From Deltaproteobacteria bacterium (lineage in GTDB: Bacteria > Desulfobacterota > UBA8473): 41,390 bases of DNA. Position 1 is the stretch's first letter. Each line of letters opens with the position of its first letter. Location: the NCBI GenBank assembly GCA_030643245.1, contig DAOWME010000002.1, positions 1 to 41,390 of the forward strand, written 5' to 3'. Shown here piece by piece: positions 1 through 41,390 of the stretch. Both the position numbers and the translations under genes were made by a program. The notes under the pieces were generated by a model, which was given only the letters and a program-made list of their open reading frames with translations, was not told the DNA's origin and ran no database searches.

Positions 1-169
1 GAAATAACTTCCCCATTTGTGCATCTCATCTTCAGGCCATCTTTGCCCGATCTTCAAACACAAAATCCTCAAAATAGTTCGACTATTCCTGCGGTTTTGC
101 GTTTTCGGATCGAACAAATCTAACCTAAATCTGAGCGCCAACTTGAGGAAGTTATTTCGTCCCCGTCCC
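1..169 (+). mobile_element. Family-1 ~180-bp palindromic MITE-like element, copy A (left end clipped by window start)
   Basis: Collinear with the full copies at 16084-16262 and 34866-35045 (reverse complement). Begins inside the terminal repeat (gaaataacttcc). Right end is ggaagttatttcgtccccgtccc, followed by TAA at 170-172. Confidence 0.9.
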
Positions 170-468
170 TAAGCATCGCACCGAGGTGCGCTTTCCCCGC
201 CCTGCGCCGCTCTTGTCCGGCGTCCGAGGCAGATATGCGACGCTCCTTCCTGTCTTCCGATAAGTAGTGTATCTTAGGCTGGGTGTCCATCTTCAACTTT
301 ATAATATGCTTGACAGCGGGTTTTCGTCTAGTTTACTCTCCAGACTCCTATGTGCTTCCGCGCCTTGGATTGACCAACGGCGGCCTGTACCTTCCATCTG
401 TTCTTGCCTGTATGTCCTCAAGTAGATTCTACAACTCCGCTACCTAGTGTGCATCCAGAAATGAGATA

Positions 469-538
469 TTTTTCGACCTGTTCTGTTGAGTAGGTTTACC
501 TCTTAACGGAATCTTGCTTAACTGCACAGGTGAAAAAA
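469..538. repeat. Family-3 short palindromic intergenic element (~70 bp)
   Basis: Imperfect inverted arms tttttcgacctgttctgtt / aactgcacaggtgaaaaaa. Internal aggtttacc...cttaac core is shared with 2596-2723 and 11955-12000. Confidence 0.6.
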
Positions 539-540
539 CC

Positions 541-569
541 TTGACAACTTCCAGTGCATGTGCTAATTT
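541..569 (+). promoter_or_regulatory. Candidate sigma70-type promoter for the Trp-rich protein / redox cluster
   Basis: TTGACA (541-546), 17-nt spacer, TAATTT (564-569), about 75 nt upstream of the ATG at 644. Confidence 0.4.
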
Positions 570-643
570 TGCTTTTTTTGAATGATGGCTCATTCATTTT
601 ATTGTCTGGCATAAGAGGTCAGAGGCATTTTGAGGTGCAAGTG

Positions 644-1903
644 ATGAGTGAAACACAGGGTTGGGACTGGGAAACCAAAGAGAAGTTGGTTGCAGATTTG
701 AATAAGTGGAGGAAGGATTTCCCGGTCGTATGGGAATGCATAGTCAGTAACGATGGTGAGAAGATCTCAGCGCCGGTCCGCACGGAAGATGATGAGTTCA
801 CCGTCTGCGTGAACGGTGAAACCTGGGAAAACACCTTTGAGAAATTATGGTCACTGAAATATGGTCCTGATGATCGGTTAATATGTCTCGTGATGAATGA
901 TGATGAATGGACTGTTGCTGTTGACAACGAAATGTGGGAGGAAACTTTCGAATATGTTTGGGGACTGCAGTTCACCCCTGATGGAAAAAGCATTGCGGTA
1001 AATATACACGGCGAAAACGGATATGGGATCTCCTTGAACGGCAAGACCTGGGAAAATGGGTTCGTTGATGCGAGAGATTTTGCTCTTAGCCCTGATGGTA
1101 AGAATACAGCCGCGGGTATCCAGACCAAAAGCCTAGCGGAAGGAGACATCTTTGGATTCGCCGAAGGCATATGGACTGTGGCTGTAAACGGGGAGCCATG
1201 GAAGAGAAATTTTTTGAATGTGTGGGGCATTGCTTTCAGCGCGGATAGCAGGCAGGTGGCGGCAGAGGTGAGAGTCGGCGAATATGAATTTACCATAGCA
1301 GTAAACGGGAATACATGGAACCAGACATTCAAATCTGTGTGGGAACCGATTTTCTACCCACATGGTGTTGACGTATTGGCTCCTGTCCAGACCGATGGTG
1401 GCTGGACCCTGGCAAAGAACGGGCAGATAATATGGGACAAGAAGTTTGTCCAGACATGGCATCAGACCTTCAGCCCGGATGGACAGAAGATTGCCGCAGT
1501 GGTGACTCCGGAATTCGGCAAGTGGACAATTGCAGTCGATGGCTCGCCGTGGTACAAAAAATTTGGAGATGCGATCCTGCCACCGGTTTTCAGCCCCGAC
1601 GGCAGGAAGGTGGCGGCAATAGCCAAGGAGAATAACCGGTGGACAATTGTGACGGATGCGGTTCCTTGGGACGAGGACTTCGATATGATATGGGACCCTG
1701 TTTTCAGTCCGATCGGCGATAAGGTGGTTGCCAAGGCTGAAAAAGACGGGAAGTTCTTCATTGTCGTAGATGGCAAAGTTGGGAAACGTGGATTTGAAGC
1801 CCTCTGGAACCCGATATTTAGTCCTGATGGAAGGAAACTTCTTGTCAGGGCAATAGAGGATGGGAAATATTACCGCCGGATAATGACGTTGGAAGAAGTT
1901 TAG
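644..1903 (+). CDS. Tryptophan-rich repeat protein (PD40/beta-propeller-like ~40-aa repeats; possibly TmcD-like), no signal peptide
   Basis: ATG at 644 is preceded by GAGGTG (632-637). There are 9-10 repeats of the pattern FSPDG.k.A....W.iaVnG..W...F..vW. I count 24 Trp in 419 aa. The ORF-track start at 554 has no RBS. Confidence 0.75.
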   Translation: MSETQGWDWETKEKLVADLNKWRKDFPVVWECIVSNDGEKISAPVRTEDDEFTVCVNGETWENTFEKLWSLKYGPDDRLICLVMNDDEWTVAVDNEMWEETFEYVWGLQFTPDGKSIAVNIHGENGYGISLNGKTWENGFVDARDFALSPDGKNTAAGIQTKSLAEGDIFGFAEGIWTVAVNGEPWKRNFLNVWGIAFSADSRQVAAEVRVGEYEFTIAVNGNTWNQTFKSVWEPIFYPHGVDVLAPVQTDGGWTLAKNGQIIWDKKFVQTWHQTFSPDGQKIAAVVTPEFGKWTIAVDGSPWYKKFGDAILPPVFSPDGRKVAAIAKENNRWTIVTDAVPWDEDFDMIWDPVFSPIGDKVVAKAEKDGKFFIVVDGKVGKRGFEALWNPIFSPDGRKLLVRAIEDGKYYRRIMTLEEV

Positions 1904-7924: not shown

Positions 7925-7981
7925 TACACCTCTTTATGAAACAATTGATTATGATCCTCGGTAGTTTCCCTTACTGACTAA

Positions 7982-8081
7982 GGAACGGGGACGAAATAAC
8001 TTCCCCATTTGTACATCTCATCTTCAGGCCATCTTTGACCGATCTTCAAACACAAAATCCTCGAAATAGGTAAGACTATTC
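7982..8081 (+). mobile_element. Family-1 MITE-like element, copy B (left half only; truncated)
   Basis: ggaacggggacgaaataacttcc...taagactattc is collinear with copies C and F for 100 nt, and homology stops at 8081. Preceded by TAA (7979-7981). Followed by ggcatcctt, which resembles a Family-2 terminus. Confidence 0.85.
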
Positions 8082-12000: not shown

Positions 12001-12069
12001 TATTGCATCATGTATTCGGCACCCGGAAATCGGTTGACATTTCCGGTTGCTTGGGTGGGTTCTCCATAA

Positions 12070-12093
12070 GGGACGTTATTTCGGCCACGTCCC
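12070..12093 (+). mobile_element. Family-1 remnant (copy D): 6 nt of left end fused to 18 nt of right terminal repeat
   Basis: gggacg|ttatttcggccacgtccc is flanked by a direct TAA on both sides (12067-12069 and 12094-12096). The right-arm variant is the exact complement of the left arm of copy F. Confidence 0.7.
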
Positions 12094-12197
12094 TAAGCAT
12101 AACAAGTATCAGGAGACAAACTCCCTGCAATGACACAAAATAGACTGTAAACAAAAGGTTAGCCATAATTAGAATTGCTGCTATGAAAATTTAGTGC

Positions 12198-13710: not shown

Positions 13711-16060
13711 CGGATTTTCCCCTTAGAAGCGTAACGTCTAGTACGTCATCCATATTCTTGGCAAAGACAAAATTGATCTTCTTCTTTACAAAGTTGGGGA
13801 TATCATCCAGGTCTTTTTTGTTTCTCTCAGGTATGAGTACTGTCTTGATTTTTGCCCTCAAGGCCGCCAGAGCCTTTTCTTTCAACCCTCCAACAGGAAG
13901 CACCCTTCCTCTCAGGGTTATCTCACCGGTCATAGCCACATCTTTATTTACAGGAATTTTGGTAAGGGCTGAGATCAAAGCAGTAGCCATGGTTACTCCT
14001 GCCGACGGTCCGTCCTTTGGAATAGCCCCTGCCGGGATATGGATATGGGTGTCCTGTTTCTCATAAAAGTCTGCGTTTAACTTCAGGTCTTTTGCCCTTG
14101 AACGGGCGTAACTGAGAGCAGCCTGTGCAGATTCTTTCATGACATCCCCCAGTTGCCCGGTGAGGGTCAAATTTCCTTTGCCTTTCATGGTGGATGCCTC
14201 TATATGCAGGATTTCTCCCCCTGCCTGTGTCCAGGCGAGGCCGGTTGCAACCCCTGCCTGGCTGACCTCTTGCTCCTCTTCAGGCAGGTGTTTGGGTGTG
14301 CCGAGATATTTGTGGACATTACCCTTGTTCACTTTGAAGACGCCCTTCTCCCCTTCTGCGATCTTTCGAGCAACCTTCCTGCATATGGAGGCAATCTCCC
14401 GCTCAAGGTTCCTAAGCCCCGCTTCATGGGTATAGTGTGAGATCGTTTGCAAAATTGCTTTATCAGATATTATCATGTCCTTTTCTGTAATTCCGTTCTC
14501 TTCCAGCTGTCGAGGAAGTAAAAATTTCCTGGCTATCTTTAGTTTTTCTTCTTCTGTATATCCTGAGAGGGTAATGACCTCCATGCGGTCTTTGAGAGCA
14601 GGGATTATTGGGTCTACAAGGTTTGCGGTGGTTATGAACATAACGTTTGAGAGATCGAAGGGTACGTTGAGATAGTGGTCGCTAAAGGCAGAGTTCTGCT
14701 CAGGGTCCAAGACTTCCAATAGGGCGGCAGATGGGTCTCCCCGGAAATCAGCCCCCACCTTATCTATCTCATCCATCATGAATACGGGGTTATTTGACCC
14801 TGCTTGTTTGATGCCCTGTATTATTCGTCCTGGAAGCGCCCCCACATAAGTCCTTCTGTGTCCTCTAATCTCAGCCTCGTCTCTAACCCCTCCAAGAGAT
14901 ATCCGGGTGAATTTCCGGCCCAAAGCCCTGGCAATGGATTTCCCTAACGACGTCTTTCCCACGCCTGGTGGACCAACAAAGCAAAGGATAGGACCTCTCT
15001 TCTTCTTGCTAAGCTTGCGCACGCCCAGGTACTCCAGTATCCTTTCCTTGACCTTTTCCAGATCATAATGGTCCTCGTCCAATACCTCTTTGGCTGCCTT
15101 TATGTCAAGGTTGTCTTTGGTGCTTATACTCCATGGAAGCTCTATTAACGAGTCAAGATAGGTTCTCACAATGGAGGCCTCTGCCGCATCGGGATGCATC
15201 TGTTGGAGCCTATCCAATTGTTTGTTAGCTTCTTTATTCACCTCTTTAGGCATCTTTGCCTTTTTGATTTTCTTCCTGAACTCGTTTATCTCTTTTGTCC
15301 TTTCATCCACATCACCCAGTTCATTTTTAATCGCCCGAAGTTGTTCCCTCAAGAAGTACTCCCGTTGTGTCTTGGTCATTTCTTCCTTAGCCTGGGATTG
15401 TATCTTTGCCTGCATTGTTGAGAGTTCTACTTCTTTGCCCAAGAGTTCATTGACCTTTATAAGGCGATCAATCGGGTCGAACGTCTCTAAGATCTCTTGG
15501 GCTTCCTCTATCTTCAACCTGAGGTTTGAGACGACGAGATCTGCCAGTCTTCCAGGGTCTTCAATGCTATTAAGGACCATTAGAACATCTGAGGATAGTA
15601 TGCCTCTCAATGAAAGCACCTTCTCGCTTTGTTCCTTAATGCTTCGCATCATAGCTTCTGCTTCCATGGGCAACGCAGTTAGGGAAGGTTCTTCAATCGT
15701 ATCGATGTTTGCTATGTAGTAAGGCTTTTGCTGGACAAAATTTTTTATACGTCCCCTGACCAGGCCCTGAACCAGAATCTTGATCCTCCCGTCAGGCAGT
15801 TTTAATGTCCGCATGATCATTGCCACTGTTCCCACTTTATAGATGTCCTGAGGAATGGGATCTTCTATGGTTGGGTCCTTCTGGGTGGTCAGGAATATCA
15901 AGCGGTTTTTTGAAAAGGCCTTATCCACAGCATTGATGGACGCCTCTCTACCAACAAACAACGGCAGAATCATGTATGAAAATATGACCACATCCCTTAC
16001 CGGTAACAATGGTAGCGTATCCGGAATCTCAATGTCTTCTCTTTTGATATCATAGTCCAT
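13658..16060 (-). CDS. lon: ATP-dependent Lon protease (LonA)
   Basis: LON N-domain ([23 protein letters not shown]), Walker A (GPPGVGKTS) and protease Ser site (PKDGPSAGV). The true ATG at 16060 has GGAG upstream. The ORF-track extension to 16156 runs into the repeat. Confidence 0.95.
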
Positions 16061-16083: not shown

Positions 16084-16262
16084 GGGCGAGGCCGAAATAA
16101 CTTCCCCATTTGTACATCTCATCTTCAGGCCATCTTTGACCGATCTTCAAACACAAAATCCTCGAAATAAGTAAGACTATTCCTGTGGTTTTGTATTTTC
16201 AGATCGAACAAATCTGACCTAAATCTGAGCGCCAACTTGAGGAAGTTATTTCGGCCTCGCCC
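16084..16262 (+). mobile_element. Family-1 MITE-like element, copy C (complete, 179 bp)
   Basis: Perfect 22-bp terminal inverted repeat gggcgaggccgaaataacttcc / ggaagttatttcggcctcgccc. The interior pairs as an imperfect rod. Lies 23 nt upstream of the lon start codon, between divergent lon and relA. Confidence 0.92.
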
Positions 16263-30387: not shown

Positions 30388-30435
30388 ATAGCCCACATTC
30401 CCCACCCTATGAAACTAAGATCATGTATTTATTCA

Positions 30436-30743
30436 GGCATCCTTCATACATCGGTTTACACTTTTTAAATTATGGCTGCTTCAACGGTAGTTAAATTTTA
30501 ACCCGTGCAGAACTCGCATCTAAGTGAGCATAAAGAAAGAACAGTCTAAAGCTACTAAATTTAACCTATAGGTTTTGGAACTACAATCATTCAAAAAACA
30601 TGGCTTTCCCCCTGTTCTTTCTTAACGCTCACTAAAATGCTCAAACAGCTGCACGAATAAAATTTAACCACCGTTGAATCTGTGCCGAGACCGTTTTTTT
30701 ATTCGAAAGTGTAAACTACTTTATAGCTTTTATGAAGGATGAC
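30436..30743 (-). mobile_element. Family-2 MITE-like element (composite copy carrying a nested insertion)
   Basis: The ends ggcatccttcatacatcggtttacactttttaaattatggctgc ... ctgtgccgagaccgttttttta..aagtgtaaactactttatagcttttatgaaggatgac equal the 41107-41219 element in reverse orientation. The copy is interrupted at 30480-30678. Confidence 0.8.
30480..30678. mobile_element. Family-5 palindromic element nested inside the Family-2 copy
   Basis: Absent from the otherwise collinear 41107-41219 copy. Termini are ttcaacggtagttaaatttta / taaaatttaaccaccgttgaa. Arms of about 55 nt are imperfectly complementary (..gtgcag..taagtgagc..aagaaagaacag / ctgttctttctt..gctcacta..ctgcac..). Confidence 0.75.
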
Positions 30744-30834
30744 AAAAAAGGTTGCAAAAAAATATTTTTAATTATAATTTTATTTATTCGTTCCTCCCTC
30801 GCCGCAAACCATTCACTGGCATATTGGAAGGCCC

Positions 30835-34615: not shown

Positions 34616-34628
34616 GGAACGAAAATAT

Positions 34629-34817
34629 GGCATCCTCCATATATATAAAAAAGTAGTTTACACTTTACTTGTATCGCTCCAGGTTTCAGGCCTTGTATTT
34701 CTCTTTACTGACACCTGACACCGAAAAGCCATGTGAGGGGCAATTTTCATCAGCCCAGAACTTTGTCTATTGGCGCCCGCATCCCTGAAAAGTCTAAACC
34801 GATAAATGAAAGATGCC
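34629..34817 (+). mobile_element. Family-2 MITE-like element, variant copy (189 bp, divergent interior)
   Basis: The left end ggcatcctccatat..aaaaagtagtttacacttt and right end aaaagtctaaaccgataaatgaaagatgcc match both ends of 41107-41219. The interior is unrelated. Confidence 0.65.
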
Positions 34818-34865
34818 CTTTTTTTCTTTAATTGTCTCGATCATTTATGGTAAATTGTCAGATTA

Positions 34866-35045
34866 GGGACGGGGACGAAATAACTTCCTCAAGTTGGCGC
34901 TCAGATTTAGGTTAGATTTGTTCGATCTGAAAACGCAAAACCGGAGGAATAGTCGAACTATTTTGAGGATTTTGTGTTTGAAGATCGGGCAAAGATGGCC
35001 TGAAGATGAGATGCACAAATGGGGAAGTTATTTCGTCCCCGTCCC
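34866..35045 (-). mobile_element. Family-1 MITE-like element, copy E (complete, 180 bp, inverted orientation)
   Basis: Perfect 23-bp terminal inverted repeat gggacggggacgaaataacttcc / ggaagttatttcgtccccgtccc. Flanked by a direct TTA at 34863-34865 and 35046-35048. Differs from copy A by only a few substitutions (2 noted in the compared segment). Confidence 0.92.
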
Positions 35046-35171
35046 TTAATTGTTTTACCCTATAATACATCTTCACAATCTCCGAACAACGGAGCATCGC
35101 AAGCAATCACTCTTGTCATCTTTCTGCTTGCGGACTCATGGCGATCAGATGCAGCGCCTGGAGGAGACCGC

Positions 35172-36230
35172 TTGGCTGGGACATTGAAACAGCCGAAAAC
35201 AATCTTGGTTCGGTGCCCAAACTGGGTTGGCGATTTGGTTATGGCAACACCGGTTTTTGACTGTCTCAAGAAAAATTTTCCCGAGGCTCGACTCATCGGC
35301 CTAATGAGGAAACGTTTGAGTCAGGTTTTGAAAGATAGCCCATGGTTTGACCAAATCATCGAGGTCAATGACAAGACATCGAGAGGATTCATCCATACAA
35401 TACGGTTGATCCGTAGTTTCACTCCTGATATGGGAATTCTTCTGCCCAACTCCATCCGTTCGACTTTGGAAATGTGGCTCGGAGGAGCAAGAAACATATA
35501 CGGGTATCGAAGAGGGGGGAGAACACCCTTTTTGACCGGTGGTCCACGACCCATTCGCGAGGGATGGAAGATTATCCCCTCACCTATGGTAGCGTATTAC
35601 TCGAAAATTTGTCTTTCAATGGGGCTTGAACTTCCAGAAGAAATGAAGCCGCTGCTTTTCTTTTCAGAGTCGGTCCATAATAAATGTGACCGTTTGCTGA
35701 AAAAGTACGGGATCAACTCCGGCGACTTGGTTATTGGTTTAAACCCGGGAGCACGGTTCGGTTCTTCAAAGTGCTGGCCGCCAAGACATTTCGCCGCCCT
35801 TGCAGAACTCTTTGAAGAGACCTTCCATTGCAAGCTACTCTTACTTGTGGGACCCGGTGAAGACGCCTTGGCGGAGGCTATTGTGGAACAGACTCACGCA
35901 CATATTACAAATACGGCGCCTGATAAGGTCGATTTAGAGCTATTAAAACCCCTGGTTCAACGTTGTCAGCTTCTGGTAACGAACGACACGGGACCACGGC
36001 ATTATGCCGTGGCATTTGACGTCCCGGTCGTGGTGATCATGGGTCCCACAGATCCGCGCTACACAGCATCAAACCTCGAGAAGACCTCTGTGTTGCGTCA
36101 CGACCTGGATTGCTCACCATGTCACAAAAAAGTGTGCCCCCGTGACCATGTTTGCATGAGAGAGATAACACCGGCCATGGTTTTAGAGGCCGGGAAACGA
36201 TTAATGGTTGACAGGATAACCAGGGTATGA
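35172..36230 (+). CDS. Glycosyltransferase family 9 (ADP-heptose:LPS heptosyltransferase-like)
   Basis: KTILVRCPNWVGDLVMATPVF, NPGARFGSSKCWP and LLVTNDTGPRHYAVAF motifs. A TTG at 35172 with GGAGGA 6 nt upstream is the most plausible start. The ORF-track ATG at 35019 lies inside the repeat. Confidence 0.8.
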   Translation: MAGTLKQPKTILVRCPNWVGDLVMATPVFDCLKKNFPEARLIGLMRKRLSQVLKDSPWFDQIIEVNDKTSRGFIHTIRLIRSFTPDMGILLPNSIRSTLEMWLGGARNIYGYRRGGRTPFLTGGPRPIREGWKIIPSPMVAYYSKICLSMGLELPEEMKPLLFFSESVHNKCDRLLKKYGINSGDLVIGLNPGARFGSSKCWPPRHFAALAELFEETFHCKLLLLVGPGEDALAEAIVEQTHAHITNTAPDKVDLELLKPLVQRCQLLVTNDTGPRHYAVAFDVPVVVIMGPTDPRYTASNLEKTSVLRHDLDCSPCHKKVCPRDHVCMREITPAMVLEAGKRLMVDRITRV

Positions 36231-37720
36231 AGCCATCCCATTATCGAGAACAATGGACCACTTTGACCAAACAGGAACCAAACATTGAAAGTGTAAGTCA
36301 ACTGGCGCGGCAGGTGGCGTTTTCATTCATGGATCATCACTTTCATCGAGGCTGCTACGAGGAAGCGTATATCGATTTACTCTGTGAAATGGCAACATCC
36401 TCAGAGAGTCTCGAAGTAAACCGGTTTGTGGCAGCGGCCTTGTTCGGCATTATCGTGGAGGGGTTGTGTGATGATTTTGAGGAGATGCAAACACAGACTT
36501 ATAACCGGGTCATGAGTCAGGTGATTTCATTCTGTCGCAGCCTTCCTGCAGGCAAGGACCTCGATCACCGATTGGATGCTTTTGGAGTTCACTCTTCCGG
36601 AGAATTCCTGCAGCGTATAGACAGGATCAGAACGGACCACAAAGTTCTCCCGCTTCCTGAGCATATTTCCAAAATATTACTGCTCTCGAGGGTCACCATA
36701 GGCGCGGATGTGGCCATTACCAGTGTGGTTGTCCAGCGTTTAAGCAAGCGCTTCCCTGATGCAGAGATAGTGATCCTGGGCAGCAAGAAACTCGAAGAAA
36801 TCTATGGGGGCAATCCACGGATAAGGATCATGGAGGTATTGTACAACCGGCGTGGCGGTTTGATTGAGCGTCTGTCCAACTGGCATGATGTATTGGACAT
36901 TATTGACCGGGAAATCAACCACTCTTCACAGGAAAAGTTCATCCTTGTTGACCCTGACTCACGCCTTTCACAGCTCGGCACCCTCCCCCTTGTGCCATCC
37001 AGTCGTTACTTTTTTTTCGACAGCCGATCTGCGGAATCGTTTGATCATATGCTGTCTATTGCGGAGTTGACGAACCGGTGGCTGGATACTATCCTGGAAA
37101 CAACCGAGTTTTACTACCCTGCTTTGTGGGCCCCTCAGCATTACCTAGAAAAGGCAGCATCTTTTTGCAGGGAACTCCGAGAAGGGGGCTCCCGGAATGT
37201 CTTCATTGTAAACCTTGGTGTTGGTGGAAATTACCGTAAACGGGTGGAGGGAGATTTTGAGAAAGAATTGCTTCTATGCCTTCTCAAGGAACCCCGATCC
37301 ATGATCCTTCTGGACAGAGGGTTCGGCGAGGAAGAAATGGCACGGACAAAAGCACTGTTGGACTCTGTGTCAGACCATGGGTATCCGGTTGTCGATGCTT
37401 CTTTTGACGCTCTGAAAGTGTGGGATATCATAAGCGGTGTTGTTGGCATTCACTGTAGTATTGGGGAGATTGCCGCGTTGATTGCAAATGGTGATGAATT
37501 TATCGGGTATGACTCTGCCTGCCAGCATATAGCCGCTGCCCTTGGTGTGCCAACATTGACGGTTTTCGCAGGATCAAATAACATGCGGTTCGTCCGTCGC
37601 TGGAGCGCCTGCGGGAAGAACAAGCATACCATCGTTCACGTGGACACACTATCGACCCATGGTTATGTGAACAGCAATGATCTCGTGAAACGCGTTATGG
37701 ATGCGCGGATGAACAGTTAA
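36227..37720 (+). CDS. GT9-like glycosyltransferase with ~150-aa N-terminal extension of unknown function
   Basis: Central ILLLSRVTIGADVAITSVVVQRLSKRFPDAEIVILGS and C-terminal GYDSACQHIAAALGVPTLTVFAG resemble heptosyltransferase motifs. ATGA overlap with the upstream GT9 gene. Confidence 0.6.
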   Translation: MKPSHYREQWTTLTKQEPNIESVSQLARQVAFSFMDHHFHRGCYEEAYIDLLCEMATSSESLEVNRFVAAALFGIIVEGLCDDFEEMQTQTYNRVMSQVISFCRSLPAGKDLDHRLDAFGVHSSGEFLQRIDRIRTDHKVLPLPEHISKILLLSRVTIGADVAITSVVVQRLSKRFPDAEIVILGSKKLEEIYGGNPRIRIMEVLYNRRGGLIERLSNWHDVLDIIDREINHSSQEKFILVDPDSRLSQLGTLPLVPSSRYFFFDSRSAESFDHMLSIAELTNRWLDTILETTEFYYPALWAPQHYLEKAASFCRELREGGSRNVFIVNLGVGGNYRKRVEGDFEKELLLCLLKEPRSMILLDRGFGEEEMARTKALLDSVSDHGYPVVDASFDALKVWDIISGVVGIHCSIGEIAALIANGDEFIGYDSACQHIAAALGVPTLTVFAGSNNMRFVRRWSACGKNKHTIVHVDTLSTHGYVNSNDLVKRVMDARMNS

Positions 37721-37729
37721 GAGTTAAGA

Positions 37730-38098
37730 ATGAAGAATGATAAATCAATTATTGCCGAACGAAGTGTTGCGTATTCACTACGTATTATCAAGGTGTATCG
37801 TGAATTGGAAAAGGACGGTGTGGGCCAAATCCTGGGAAAACAACTCTTACGTTCGGGAACCTCTGTTGGAGCGAATATACATGAAGCACAAGGCGCCCAG
37901 AGCAAGGCCGATTTCATCTCAAAGATTTCCATCGCTTACAAAGAGGCGCGTGAATCTGCCTATTGGCTTCGTCTGCTCCAGGAAGCAGAACTGATCCCCC
38001 CTAGACGTTTAAGAGATCTATCTGACGAGACTGAACAACTGATCAAGATTCTATCTTCAATCATAGTGACATCAAAGAAAGGCAAGAGAAACTCATGA
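37730..38098 (+). CDS. Four-helix-bundle protein (TIGR02436; '23S rRNA intervening-sequence protein' / Avd-like family)
   Basis: 122 aa. LGKQLLRSGTSVGANIHEAQGAQSKADFISKISIAYKEARESAYWLRLL is the family signature. Confidence 0.88.
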   Translation: MKNDKSIIAERSVAYSLRIIKVYRELEKDGVGQILGKQLLRSGTSVGANIHEAQGAQSKADFISKISIAYKEARESAYWLRLLQEAELIPPRRLRDLSDETEQLIKILSSIIVTSKKGKRNS

Positions 38099-38136
38099 TT
38101 CTTAACTCTTCACTCTTAACTCTTCACTCTTAACTA
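38099..38136 (+). repeat. 14-bp tandem repeat (ctcttaactcttca x ~2.7) forming the right arm of the inverted repeat around the four-helix-bundle gene
   Basis: ttcttaactcttca|ctcttaactcttca|ctcttaacta. 38098-38110 is the perfect complement of 37719-37731. Confidence 0.85.
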
Positions 38137-39654
38137 ATGAAAGTACTCTTCATTTACCCTAACGTGGGATCACAGGTAGGCTTCAATTACGGCATCTCCC
38201 ACATGTCTTCTGTGCTCAAGCACGGAGGGCATGAGGTGGAATGCTGGCAAATCTGCGAATCCCTTGACCCACTGCCTACCTGTGAAGAGTTCGCTGCGCG
38301 TTTGCAGGAGATTGAGCCTGACCTCGTCGGATTTTCTGTTGTCACAAATCAATGGCCCTATGCCAAAAGGCTGGCCTCATGGGCTAGAGAAACAGTTTCA
38401 GCACCGTTGATTATCGGTGGAATACATGCTACCGCAGCAACTCGACAGATCCTGGACACAGGGCTCTTTGACTATGTTTTCAGAGGGGAATGCGACGAGG
38501 CGATCCTGGAATTTGCGGATATGTTGTCCAGAGGTGAAGACGTTGCCTGTATACGCAACGTGGCCCTGGTCCGTGACAAGAAGGTCATAATCAACCCTGT
38601 TCGTCCTTTTCCGGTAATCAGAGATTTACCAGTTAAAGAATATCAGATCTTCGATTTCCAACGGGTCATCAATGCCAAAGACGGATGGGTCGGACTTATC
38701 GCTTCTAGGGGATGTCCTTTTTCCTGCACATATTGTTTGAATCACCAGATCAAAAACCAGTACAAAATTGACCTGAACTGCAGTCTTGGAGAGCTGAATT
38801 TTATTCGCCATCTTGATGTCGGTCAGGTAATAGGCGAAATCGAATTTCTCCTCAACACTTACAAGAACATCAAAACATTTATATTTGATGATGACCTCTT
38901 CACCTTTAGTAAAGAATATGTGAGGGAATTCTGTAAAGCATACAAGAAAGTCTGTAGTATTCCCTTTGTAGTGAACGCTCATTTTCATTATTTTGATGAA
39001 GATAGGGCGCGGTATCTTGCGGCAGCTAACTGCAAGATAGTGAAATTCGGGATAGAAAGCGGTAACGAACGCATACGCAAGGAGGTTCTGAACCGTCGTA
39101 TGAGCAATCAATTGATGATGGACAAGGTCGAGATTGCGGAACGGCAGGGATTGCACGCGTCCGTCTTTATTATGATCGGACTTCCCTACGAAACCATGGA
39201 TGACGTCATAGACACGGTCCGTTTAACCGCGCAGGCAAGACCCGGCCGGTTCAGATGGACAAAGTTCTTCCCCTATCCCGGAACCAAAGCAGCCGAACTC
39301 AGTGTGCAGGGTGGATATGTGGATTTTGACAAGATGGAGAACCTCATGAACTTCACGGATGAATCCTGCCTTGACTTCGGTACTCAACATAACCTTTTTC
39401 TCGAAAAAGTGGGTCAACTCTTCCCGTGGTTCGTCAATGCGTATTCCGGCCTGTCTGTTGCCCCATTCTATGAGAGAAAGATGAAAGAGGTTCTGGCAAT
39501 GGATCGCTATGAATGGGGGAAAATATCCCCCGGCCTTCTTGATGAAGACAAGAGGATATCGAGAAATTTTGTTGACCGGAGGAAGAGTCACTACGCATTT
39601 AAATACAATACTTTCACAGGTGTTATTTCCGACTACTTTACAGCTGAGGGCTAA
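38137..39654 (+). CDS. B12-binding-domain radical SAM enzyme (class B rSAM, substrate unknown)
   Basis: N-terminal B12-binding-like domain (KVLFIYPN...VGFSVVT), radical SAM cluster motif SRGCPFSCTYC, 505 aa. Confidence 0.85.
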   Translation: MKVLFIYPNVGSQVGFNYGISHMSSVLKHGGHEVECWQICESLDPLPTCEEFAARLQEIEPDLVGFSVVTNQWPYAKRLASWARETVSAPLIIGGIHATAATRQILDTGLFDYVFRGECDEAILEFADMLSRGEDVACIRNVALVRDKKVIINPVRPFPVIRDLPVKEYQIFDFQRVINAKDGWVGLIASRGCPFSCTYCLNHQIKNQYKIDLNCSLGELNFIRHLDVGQVIGEIEFLLNTYKNIKTFIFDDDLFTFSKEYVREFCKAYKKVCSIPFVVNAHFHYFDEDRARYLAAANCKIVKFGIESGNERIRKEVLNRRMSNQLMMDKVEIAERQGLHASVFIMIGLPYETMDDVIDTVRLTAQARPGRFRWTKFFPYPGTKAAELSVQGGYVDFDKMENLMNFTDESCLDFGTQHNLFLEKVGQLFPWFVNAYSGLSVAPFYERKMKEVLAMDRYEWGKISPGLLDEDKRISRNFVDRRKSHYAFKYNTFTGVISDYFTAEG

Positions 39655-39744
39655 AGACCATACCCGGTCCACGCTGATTAGATGAAGGTATCGAAGGTTG
39701 ATCCTTCCGGGTTGATCAGGAATCATACTGTTTGGAATATTGAG

Positions 39745-41043
39745 ATGGGGTCAAAAGCAAGAATTGTGTTTCTGGCTGTGGTATTAGCGATCTACATAAG
39801 CTCCGGAGTGCAGGTCATCCATAAGGCCAAGGCGAATCGAACGGCATTCTTACGCTGGAGCCATTACACGGAAATGCTCGGTCGTGGAGAGATGATCTAT
39901 AATCTCGAAGGAGCGCAATATCCCAACTTGCCCATGATGGCGCTTATTTTGACCCCCTTCCATGCGATGGGGAACCTAGTGGGGTCGTTCTGCTGGTTAA
40001 CATTTAAGTATTTACTACTGTTGGCCATCGTTTGGACGGCGATAAAAGTCTCCCGGAACAGTGGCCCGCCCTGGCCCGACTGGGCGCTCGTAGTGCTATT
40101 GCTGTTAAGCGTAAGGGTGTTTGTAAGTGACCTAACCCATGGAAACGTGAACTTGATCATTGGAGCGCTCATTGCCGGAGCGCTTTTCTGTTCTTATCAA
40201 ACCAGAGATTTCCTGGCAGGTTTGGCAATTGGCCTTGCAATTGTACTCAAGGTAACACCGCTGCTTTTTCTACTTTATTTCATCTATAAACGACGGTGGT
40301 TAAGCGTGTCCGGATTAGTAGTCGGTGTTGTGCTGTTTTTATGGGTTGTGCCAGGGTTTGTATTGGGGTTTGAATTCAACATGCAATTGATAACAGCATG
40401 GTACAAGCAAATGATTCATCCCTTCTTAAGCGGTCAACCAGTGGGCTACCTTCAGACAGCCCACATAAATCAATCGTTCACCGGCTTATTTTATCGTCTA
40501 TTGTCGGATACAGTGGCTATGGAAGCAAATGCCGGCAGAGGTTACGGCGAGTTGCGGATTAATTTATTATCATTGGATCAACAGACGGTGTCTCTAATAG
40601 TGAGGCTGGCCTCAATATCTGTGTTGGCTTGCCTGGTTGCATTTTGCCGCACGCCTCGGGAGGATCGCAGGCACCTGGGTAACGTAGGAGAATTTGCCCT
40701 TGTGTTTTTAGCCATGTTGTTTCTTTCAGAGCGGTCGTGGAAGCATCACTACGTCTTGCTCATACTTGCGCATGGCTTCCTGCTCTATTTTCTGTTAGTC
40801 ATGAGACCAAGAGGATGGCGTAAATGGCTGCCGTTGTCTTCTCTGACTGTAGCTGTCTTCTGTCATTCTCTTGTGAGTGACTCGACATTGGGGCATTACT
40901 GGAGCAATGTTGCGGAGGCTTATGGGGTATTTCTTTTTGGTGGTATTTCGTTGTTCGTCGGCTGCTCCGCCGCTTTAACTGCGTTGAGGTTGAGCAGATG
41001 GCCAAGTCATACCGGCATTACAGAAATTTCAGACGCGCATTAA
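39745..41043 (+). CDS. Polytopic membrane glycosyltransferase (GT87/DUF2029-like)
   Basis: About 11 hydrophobic helices. YPNLPMMALILTPF loop motif and GNVNLIIGALI..LKVTPLLFLLY, typical of DUF2029/GT-C enzymes. Start is ATG 39745 or ATG 39682. Confidence 0.65.
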   Translation: MGSKARIVFLAVVLAIYISSGVQVIHKAKANRTAFLRWSHYTEMLGRGEMIYNLEGAQYPNLPMMALILTPFHAMGNLVGSFCWLTFKYLLLLAIVWTAIKVSRNSGPPWPDWALVVLLLLSVRVFVSDLTHGNVNLIIGALIAGALFCSYQTRDFLAGLAIGLAIVLKVTPLLFLLYFIYKRRWLSVSGLVVGVVLFLWVVPGFVLGFEFNMQLITAWYKQMIHPFLSGQPVGYLQTAHINQSFTGLFYRLLSDTVAMEANAGRGYGELRINLLSLDQQTVSLIVRLASISVLACLVAFCRTPREDRRHLGNVGEFALVFLAMLFLSERSWKHHYVLLILAHGFLLYFLLVMRPRGWRKWLPLSSLTVAVFCHSLVSDSTLGHYWSNVAEAYGVFLFGGISLFVGCSAALTALRLSRWPSHTGITEISDAH

Positions 41044-41106
41044 TTTTCCAACCCATCCTGTTTGGTTGGAAATCTAGGAGGTATCGACAATATTACAAGA
41101 AATTTG

Positions 41107-41219
41107 GGCATCCTTCATAAAAGCTTCAAAGTAGTTTACACTTTCTAATAAAAAAACGGTCTCGGCACAGATTCAGCAGCCATAATTTAAAAAGTGTAAA
41201 CCAATGTATGAAGGATGCC
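41107..41219 (+). mobile_element. Family-2 MITE-like element, compact copy (113 bp) with 8-bp target-site duplication
   Basis: Termini ggcatccttcata...gtttacacttt / aaagtgtaaac...tatgaaggatgcc. A perfect direct repeat gaaatttg lies at 41099-41106 and 41220-41227. Confidence 0.85.
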
Positions 41220-41242
41220 GAAATTTGCTTAAAAAATACCAA

Positions 41243-41390
41243 GGGACGTGGCCGAAATAACTTCCCCATTTGTACATCTCATCTTCAGGCCATCTTTGAC
41301 CGATCTTCAAACACAAAATCCTCGAAATAGGTAAGACTATTCCTGTGGTTTTGTATTTTCAGATCGAACAAATCTAACCTAAATCTGAGC
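41243..41390 (+). mobile_element. Family-1 MITE-like element, copy F (right end clipped by window end)
   Basis: gggacgtggccgaaataacttcc..., collinear with copy C to the last base of the window. Confidence 0.9.

Follow-up and report, generated by a model that had tools for sequence, protein, structure and literature searches.

The stretch of DNA analysed here, which we call the window, is 41,390 nt long and contains a repeat of 179-180 bp (in its complete copies) that has no coding capacity. The genes near the repeat copies include a cluster for NrfD, 4Fe-4S and multihaem-cytochrome proteins, together with mutL, surE, lon, relA/spoT, recG, tex, recQ, mdh, comEC and heptosyltransferase genes. 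The Pfam domains of the cytochrome cluster suggest that the source organism is a sulfate reducer. An earlier note on this DNA had placed the repeat at six loci, and a repeat search and an nhmmer profile search each returned the same six. These are listed below as MITE copies, a name justified in the following sections. The strand given is that on which the copy lies in the orientation of copy E, which was taken as the reference ("E orientation").

1 to 169, minus strand: MITE copy A, subfamily A/E; clipped at the window start, which removes the outer 10 nt from one terminal repeat; flanked by TAA at 170-172; better-folding strand on the window minus strand (nhmmer E = 1.6e-48 on that strand)
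7982 to 8081, minus strand: MITE copy B, truncated to a terminal repeat, an arm and the apical hairpin; TAA at 7979-7981; an NrfD-like gene on one side and mutL on the other
12070 to 12093, strand unassigned: remnant reading TAA / GGGACG + TTATTTCGGCCACGTCCC / TAA; both tips present, interior gone
16084 to 16262, minus strand: MITE copy C, complete, subfamily B/C/F; 22-bp perfect terminal stem; degenerate flanks TCA and CTA
34866 to 35045, plus strand: MITE copy E, complete and inverted relative to the other copies, subfamily A/E; TTA at 34863-34865 and 35046-35048
41243 to 41390, minus strand: MITE copy F, clipped at the window end, subfamily B/C/F

All window copies are intergenic, as had been claimed, with Pfam-supported genes on both sides. 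The only ORFs that overlap them are those whose called starts extend from adjoining genes. Pairwise comparisons support the division into two subfamilies, A/E and B/C/F: A and E show 99% complementarity over 172 nt, and C matches F with 97% identity. The perfect 22-bp terminal stem described for copy C was confirmed. The remnant keeps both copies of the TAA duplication (12067-12069 and 12094-12096), and positions 12067-12096 as a whole look like the footprint of a deletion or excision. We found no transposase in the window, in agreement with the earlier note.

The window also holds a second, unrelated MITE-like palindromic family ("Family 2") at 41099-41228, 30431-30747 and 34621-34666, the arms of which carry GGCATCCTTCATA...AAAGTGTAAAC. 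Besides a half copy, it has a long version of about 317 bp and a short one of about 130 bp, for which the RNA fold is -39 kcal/mol (z = -5.9).

Element plan, target site and insertion

The plan of the element is TWA / GG + 9 variable nt + GAAATAACTTCC ... GGAAGTTATTTC + 9 nt + CC / TWA. The terminal inverted repeats are 23-31 bp long; over 22-26 bp they are perfect or near-perfect in the window's copies C and E, as they are in 78 full copies from elsewhere. Each begins with GG, continues with about 9 nt that vary by lineage, and ends with the conserved core (C)GAAATAACTTCC(CC). The interior, about 130 nt long, is non-coding and forms an imperfect palindrome.

We then compared the sequences that flank the element. 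Identical trinucleotides were found on both sides in 62 of the 78 full copies of the window's family, and these were TAA in 36 copies, TTA in 24 and ATA in 2. Among the copies flanked by TWA, the direct arrangement was seen 60 times and the palindromic arrangement 8 times (p = 6e-11). Furthermore, five comparisons of filled with empty sites showed precise insertion, in which the added sequence consisted of the element and one copy of TAA or TTA. For example, the locus L063 reads ...ACATGTAA / element / TAAGCTTTTAC..., whereas L042, L058 and L056 carry the uninterrupted sequence ...ACATGTAAGCTTTTAC.... Such comparisons were provided by MITE copies nested in other repeat families of the same genomes (L015:132-311, L053:896-1076 and L063:5628-5807). 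Because of the direct flanking duplications and the comparisons of filled with empty sites, we regard the mobility of the element and its 3-bp target-site duplication as settled.

Abundance and host range

Genomes (one per species) were scanned with the pattern GAAATAACTTCC-N(120-150)-GGAAGTTATTTC, which gave at least 88 stretches, and a scan of metagenomes gave at least 120. In the loci fetched from these scans (1.45 Mb) the MITE profile matched 305 times. The further genomic copies that the earlier note had expected thus exist.

Most of the genome-scan matches listed came from metagenome-assembled genomes of Desulfobacterales, and one such genome, from Lake Grevelingen, gave dozens of contigs. 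The other listed matches were from Gemmatimonadota, Gammaproteobacteria (including Methylococcales), Myxococcota, Planctomycetota, Acidobacteriota, Chlamydiales and Betaproteobacteria. The pattern built on GAAATAACTTCC finds matches in so many phyla because the core of the terminal repeat is conserved. The hosts of the MITE itself are Desulfobacterota, Gammaproteobacteria, Gemmatimonadota and Myxococcota. In Planctomycetes, Acidobacteria and others, the same ends enclose unrelated interiors, which again form whole-length hairpins (-83 to -175 kcal/mol).

Several matches were set aside. The match in L046 (Moraniibacteriota) is a chance match to the pattern, and that in L009 is probably another. 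Two contigs binned as archaeal, L013 (Methanococcoides bin) and L077 (Methanolliviera bin), carry MITE copies near-identical to Desulfobacterales subfamilies, that of L077 being the window's own subfamily. These two are probably bacterial contigs placed in the wrong bins, and archaea would then not be hosts.

A search of viral contigs gave no match to the element, and a literature search for its 12-mers returned irrelevant matches only. MITEs reported from Thiomargarita were considered as the same element and rejected, since the elements of that paper differ. In keeping with the earlier note, the repeat matches no Rfam family. There were no matches at the gathering thresholds, and permissive filters returned only hairpins of plant miRNA precursors, far below threshold (39.5 vs 117 bits).

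Full-length elements with the same ends

The scan of metagenomes was made with the 23-nt terminal repeat, and it also gave an autonomous partner of the MITE. One contig, L108, was found to contain two inverted terminal repeats 1.6 kb apart. They delimit an element of 1,623 bp (L108:1253-2875) that has the same terminal repeats as the MITE, with ends TTA/GGAACGGGGACGAAATAACTTCCCCAACT...AGTTGGGGAAGTTATTTCGTCCACGTTCC/TTA. Its single ORF encodes 418 aa and matches NF033519, the ISAzo13 family transposase, with 472 bits against a cut-off of 200; the match to PF07592 scores 353 bits. This transposase has at least 5,902 homologues at E ≤ 1e-60, mainly on contigs of 1.3-2.8 kb, and such small contigs are as expected from repeats collapsed in assembly. 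Further full-length copies with the same ends were found in L225 (a Desulfobacteraceae genome, TTA/TTA) and L226 (flanks TAA and TTA), and the ends are also the same in L222.

The ends of annotated ISAzo13 elements on plasmids were compared in the same manner. The element of Thiothrix fructosivorans reads TTA/GGAACTGTCCCGAAATAACTTCCC, has a perfect 25-nt repeat, and carries the core GAAATAACTTCCC, which is identical to that of the MITE. The end of an ISAzo13 element of Methylomonas reads TTA/GGATCTGGTAAAAAATAACTTCCC, that of ISNsp4 of Nostoc TTA/GGCATCATGTAAAAATAACTTGAAC, and that of an ISAzo13 element of Streptomyces TAA/GGGCTTGCCGGGAAACAAG. The ends from Methylomonas, Nostoc (ISNsp4), Calothrix and Streptomyces share one layout, in which GG is followed by a variable stretch and an AAA(T/C)AA core. 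Duplications of 3 bp have been described for the ISAzo13 family and for its eukaryotic relative Zator (PMC10045372; PMC5718144).

From the same ends, the 3-bp TWA duplication and the existence of a partner that encodes a transposase, we conclude with high confidence that the repeats of the window are non-coding MITEs of about 180 bp with ISAzo13-family ends. The earlier note had not recognised the sequence as a described repeat and had named a match to a known IS end as what would refute its claim; the ISAzo13-family ends are such a match.

We suppose that an ISAzo13-family transposase encoded elsewhere in the genome would move the MITE copies in trans, and that it would bind the conserved core of the terminal repeats and cut at the GG termini. 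Against such mobilisation in the source genome stands the result that the window, and the 1.45 Mb of loci from both scans, contained no transposase except that of L108 and a remnant of 27 aa. The remnant (L068:2354-2434, 85% identity to the ISAzo13 transposase) lies in the MITE-rich Desulfobacteraceae genome from Grevelingen and is the sole trace of a transposase among the loci fetched from that genome. Between the interior of the MITE and the subterminal regions of the ISs we detected no homology past about 30 nt, which gives no way to link the polarity of the fold, described below, with the direction in which the transposase gene runs.

Several other candidates for the partner were rejected. 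Among the first 88 loci (the first 650 kb), no pair of terminal repeats 250-4000 bp apart enclosed a transposase. The segment L073:3515-4398 contains rplM between two decayed copies, and L136:4611-7027 contains unrelated small ORFs. Proteins that recurred between loci were ordinary paralogues. A blastn search of plasmids with the whole element gave only a solo terminal repeat in Desulfosarcina sp. BuS5, and the transposases of the BuS5 plasmid are of the IS4, IS3 and Tn3 types. On this plasmid (NZ_CP087953.1, L089:4001-4905) a DUF1638 gene is bounded by a left terminal repeat and by a right end that has degenerated; TAA adjoins each of them, and the whole spans about 890 bp. This is either a derivative that carries cargo or a pair of decayed copies flanking a host gene.

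Fold, covariation and strand polarity of the interior

The earlier note had read the whole unit as one long imperfect hairpin, and the folding of copy C bears this out. Its plus strand folds at -71.8 kcal/mol (z = -8.7 against shuffled sequences) and its minus strand at -102.4 kcal/mol (z = -14.4). The internal loops of 11x11 and 12x11 nt reported for this copy hold only for the plus strand and Watson-Crick pairs; on the minus strand, most of them are closed by G:U pairs.

In order to clarify whether the rod is conserved, we examined 12 lineage representatives of the window's family. In a rod of 64 pairs, 95.3% of cells were paired. Changes on both sides of a pair were found at 38 of the 64 pairs, a value reached by none of 500 shuffles, and slid registers gave 7-13. 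The rod is retained both in the GC-rich copy of Gemmatimonadota and in the AT-rich copy of Methylococcales. These results show that the rod-like interior has been conserved through compensatory change across at least four phyla.

The two strands of the element are not equivalent, a point that the earlier note had missed. One orientation folds better in all 78 copies, with a mean of -106.5 vs -79.9 kcal/mol. For copy E the RNA fold is -110.4 kcal/mol, and that of its complement is -77.9. In the window the better-folding strand is the plus strand for copy E and the minus strand for copies A, B, C and F. When the left arm was aligned to the reverse complement of the right arm, which requires no structure model, arm-to-arm transitions that give G:U on the better-folding strand numbered 587 and those that give A:C there 74. 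The MITE families of Planctomycetes and Acidobacteria that have the same ends showed no polarity; thus, polarity is not a general requirement of the family.

The rod and its covariation might instead have arisen at the level of DNA, by concerted evolution. That is, one IS end would have folded back, the arms would have been homogenised by hairpin-templated repair or template switching, and the excess of G:U would be a frozen accident of the founder. Copying from arm to arm can indeed produce compensatory changes in a DNA palindrome without selection. All independent MITE families that have these terminal repeats are palindromes over their whole length, which suggests that they arose by a shared mechanism. 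Moreover, end-palindromised copies exist, in which one arm has had its tip replaced by an exact reverse-complementary version of the opposite arm (L040:2514-2670, L072:3651-3807, L031:6533-6690 and L068:5372-5528); these could have come from arm-to-arm copying, from recombination of inverted copies, or from chimeric assembly. However, homogenisation should remove G:T mismatches, yet most lineages have G:U at seven pairs of the rod. Where a pair is usually Watson-Crick, lineage-specific wobble also occurs, G:U being found in 41 cells and A:C in 9, in lineages whose sequences have otherwise diverged and whose GC content has been adjusted. Neutral conversion, furthermore, does not predict the dependence on variant frequency given in the next section, and it leaves the polarity unexplained. 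We therefore consider concerted evolution an unlikely account of the rod, though one with some claim to attention.

Variant frequency, gene orientation and the role of the fold

We next asked whether the fold serves the spread of the element or its host. Among 151 copies of the main clade, G:U and A:C variants of Watson-Crick pairs were counted according to the number of copies that carry them. Variants present in at most 2 copies comprised 17 G:U and 35 A:C; those in 3-9 copies, 23 and 14; and those in at least 10 copies, 7 and 1, together with 5 compensatory changes. These are counts of variant types in metagenome-assembled copies, among which assembly chimeras may be included. The difference between the rare variants and the rest was significant (Fisher p = 0.001). 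That is, variants that preserve the structure are enriched among spreading variants and not among private mutations.

The orientation of the element relative to genes was examined with 189 full copies and with gene calls from which ORFs running into the element had been left out. Between co-directional genes, 38 copies were in the sense orientation and 30 in the antisense orientation (p = 0.40). A sense bias of 24 to 9, obtained with crude ORF calls, was gone in this larger and cleaner set.

Since spreading variants keep the fold, private mutations do not, and orientation to genes is random, we take the fold to help the spread of the element and not the host. It seems, as far as we can infer, that the fold matters on one strand, and for amplification and not for residence. 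The fold would help the element to spread through a single-stranded step, which might involve RNA of the element or one DNA strand that folds during transposition. In the latter case the folded strand may draw the two ends of the element together.

A stricter version of this reading is that one specific strand of the MITE, as RNA or single-stranded DNA, must fold for efficient movement by the ISAzo13-family DDE transposase, the fold acting perhaps by joining the ends or by being recognised as a structure. Such a requirement would explain the compensatory hairpin found across phyla, the tolerance of G:U but not A:C, and the preservation of pairing only in spreading variants. We put it forward tentatively and think it rather improbable in this strict form. 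If it were true, it would be a novelty among DDE transposons with target-site duplications, namely a strand-specific step that depends on structure.

Another explanation is that the rod is a regulatory RNA at the level of the host, as in ERIC or Correia elements. According to this explanation, transposition accounts only for the arrival of copies, which would then be transcribed together with adjoining genes, fold as a long hairpin and be kept for their effect on mRNA stability, on processing by RNase III or RNase E, or on translation. The hairpin is very stable, and the strand asymmetry is much larger with RNA parameters (32 kcal/mol) than with DNA parameters (9.5 kcal/mol). Some G:U pairs are conserved across lineages. 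In addition, copy C ends 23 nt upstream of the start codon of lon (ATG at 16060, minus strand, with GGAG at 16070-16067) in the sense orientation, its better-folding strand being the sense strand of lon. The first, crude orientation count also agreed with such a role.

Several results argue against the regulatory explanation, however. The orientation bias was lost once the copies were more numerous and the gene calls cleaner. Private mutations erode the pairing, indicating that inserted copies decay and are not maintained. No promoter-like or terminator-like sites were predicted in or around copy E. The better-folding strand lies on the window minus strand in four of the five oriented copies regardless of gene direction, and among those four only copy C shares its strand with the adjacent gene, lon. 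We therefore judge a regulatory role of the rod to be decidedly unlikely, and we think that the window copies are mostly passengers. Even so, copy C may shape the 5' leader of lon, since the promoter or leader of lon must, to judge from the position of this copy, lie in or beyond it.

Effects on gene calls and assemblies

An ATG inside copy E, at 35019, is the called start of the downstream heptosyltransferase (GT9) gene. A second, independent assembly gives this call again (L090, gene 23..1234). The start is probably wrong; otherwise, the protein would have an N-terminal extension derived from the MITE.

A different parentage of the element would be an IS5-type or PIF/Harbinger-type MITE, a REP/REPIN mobilised by a RAYT, or a palindrome derived from IS200/IS605. 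PIF/Harbinger elements and some IS5 subgroups typically make a 3-bp TWA duplication as well, and the initial 18 nt of the terminal repeat give a weak alignment, with 15 matches, to a verified IS5 end. This alignment is not significant, being matched by 238 of 5000 shuffles. REPINs and IS200/IS605 derivatives make no target-site duplication, whereas the elements described here do, and their partner encodes a DDE transposase. Given that an ISAzo13-family element with identical terminal repeats exists, we regard all of these origins as very improbable.

Short-read contigs of the same organism (L090, corresponding to about window 34997-41295, and L091-L094; ENA LASO19-1 samples, Logan ERR3365594) terminate inside MITE copies. 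The repeat thus fragments short-read assemblies. Although contigs end in this way, it is scarcely credible that the copies themselves are assembly artefacts or chimeras, since hundreds of independent contigs, drawn from many assemblies and samples, carry the element with differing flanks and duplications, and since empty sites exist.

Discussion

The element described here is small and non-coding, has terminal inverted repeats and a target-site duplication, occurs in many dispersed copies, and has ends in common with autonomous ISs. In these properties it is a typical MITE. In kind, it is an ordinary bacterial repeat, namely a MITE family of a known IS family. What is unusual for such a MITE is its high abundance, its presence in several phyla, the rod that is kept across these phyla, and the strand-polar fold that tracks its spread.

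In the literature searched we found no description of MITEs of the ISAzo13 family, and the sole text that names both is a general survey of ISs. Our findings thus concern a previously unannotated and extremely abundant repeat of marine-sediment Desulfobacterales and other phyla, which is now tied to the little-studied ISAzo13 family. The repeat is also of practical importance, because it breaks short-read assemblies and misleads gene callers, as shown by the start inside copy E. The signature TWA / GG-N9-GAAATAACTTCC can be used to find further members of the family. Furthermore, the strand-polar, covarying interior raises the question of whether secondary structure contributes to the amplification of MITEs.

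The closest known systems are the ISs of the ISAzo13 family themselves (NF033519, PF07592), such as ISNsp4, ISNpu10, ISRop2 and ISScl2. They have the same end architecture and the same 3-bp TWA duplication as the MITE, and in one clade of them the end sequence, GG + about 9 nt + GAAATAACTTCC, is also the same. In contrast to these ISs, the elements of the window are about 180 bp long, have no transposase, and contain an unrelated palindromic interior. They also far outnumber the full-length ISs, since the 1.45 Mb of fetched loci gave 305 MITE matches but a single intact IS.

The earlier note had likened the repeat to ERIC and Correia elements more than to a MITE with terminal repeats alone. 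As to architecture the likeness holds, because Correia (CREE) and ERIC elements are also imperfect palindromes over their whole length, are intergenic, and form long RNA hairpins. As to the class it does not, since the terminal repeats, the TWA duplication and the empty sites make the element a MITE; ERIC and Correia elements are MITEs themselves. They have a TA duplication and unrelated terminal repeats and are, to our knowledge, confined to Neisseria, or to Enterobacteriaceae and Vibrio. The MITE of the window differs from them in its 3-bp TWA duplication, in its partner of the ISAzo13 family, and in having hosts in multiple phyla.

A further similar element is the Nezha MITE of Anabaena and Nostoc (Zhou et al. 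2008). According to the passages on Nezha in PMC3184786, it is 130-170 bp long, has terminal repeats in common with ISNpu3 and flanking direct repeats, is predicted to form a very stable RNA hairpin, and is known from both empty and filled sites. As far as that description goes, Nezha resembles the MITE of the window in size class, IS-derived ends, direct repeats and hairpin, and differs from it in interior sequence and in the phylum of its host. On plasmid pNFSY07 of Nostoc flagelliforme (L227:353-450) we observed a MITE, about 100 bp long, whose ends are of the ISNsp4 type (ISAzo13 family) and which has a TTA/TTA duplication; it may be related to the Nezha elements. Outside bacteria, the Zator DNA transposons of eukaryotes have a transposase related to that of ISAzo13, and they share with the family of this MITE a duplication of 3 bp (PMC10045372; PMC5718144).
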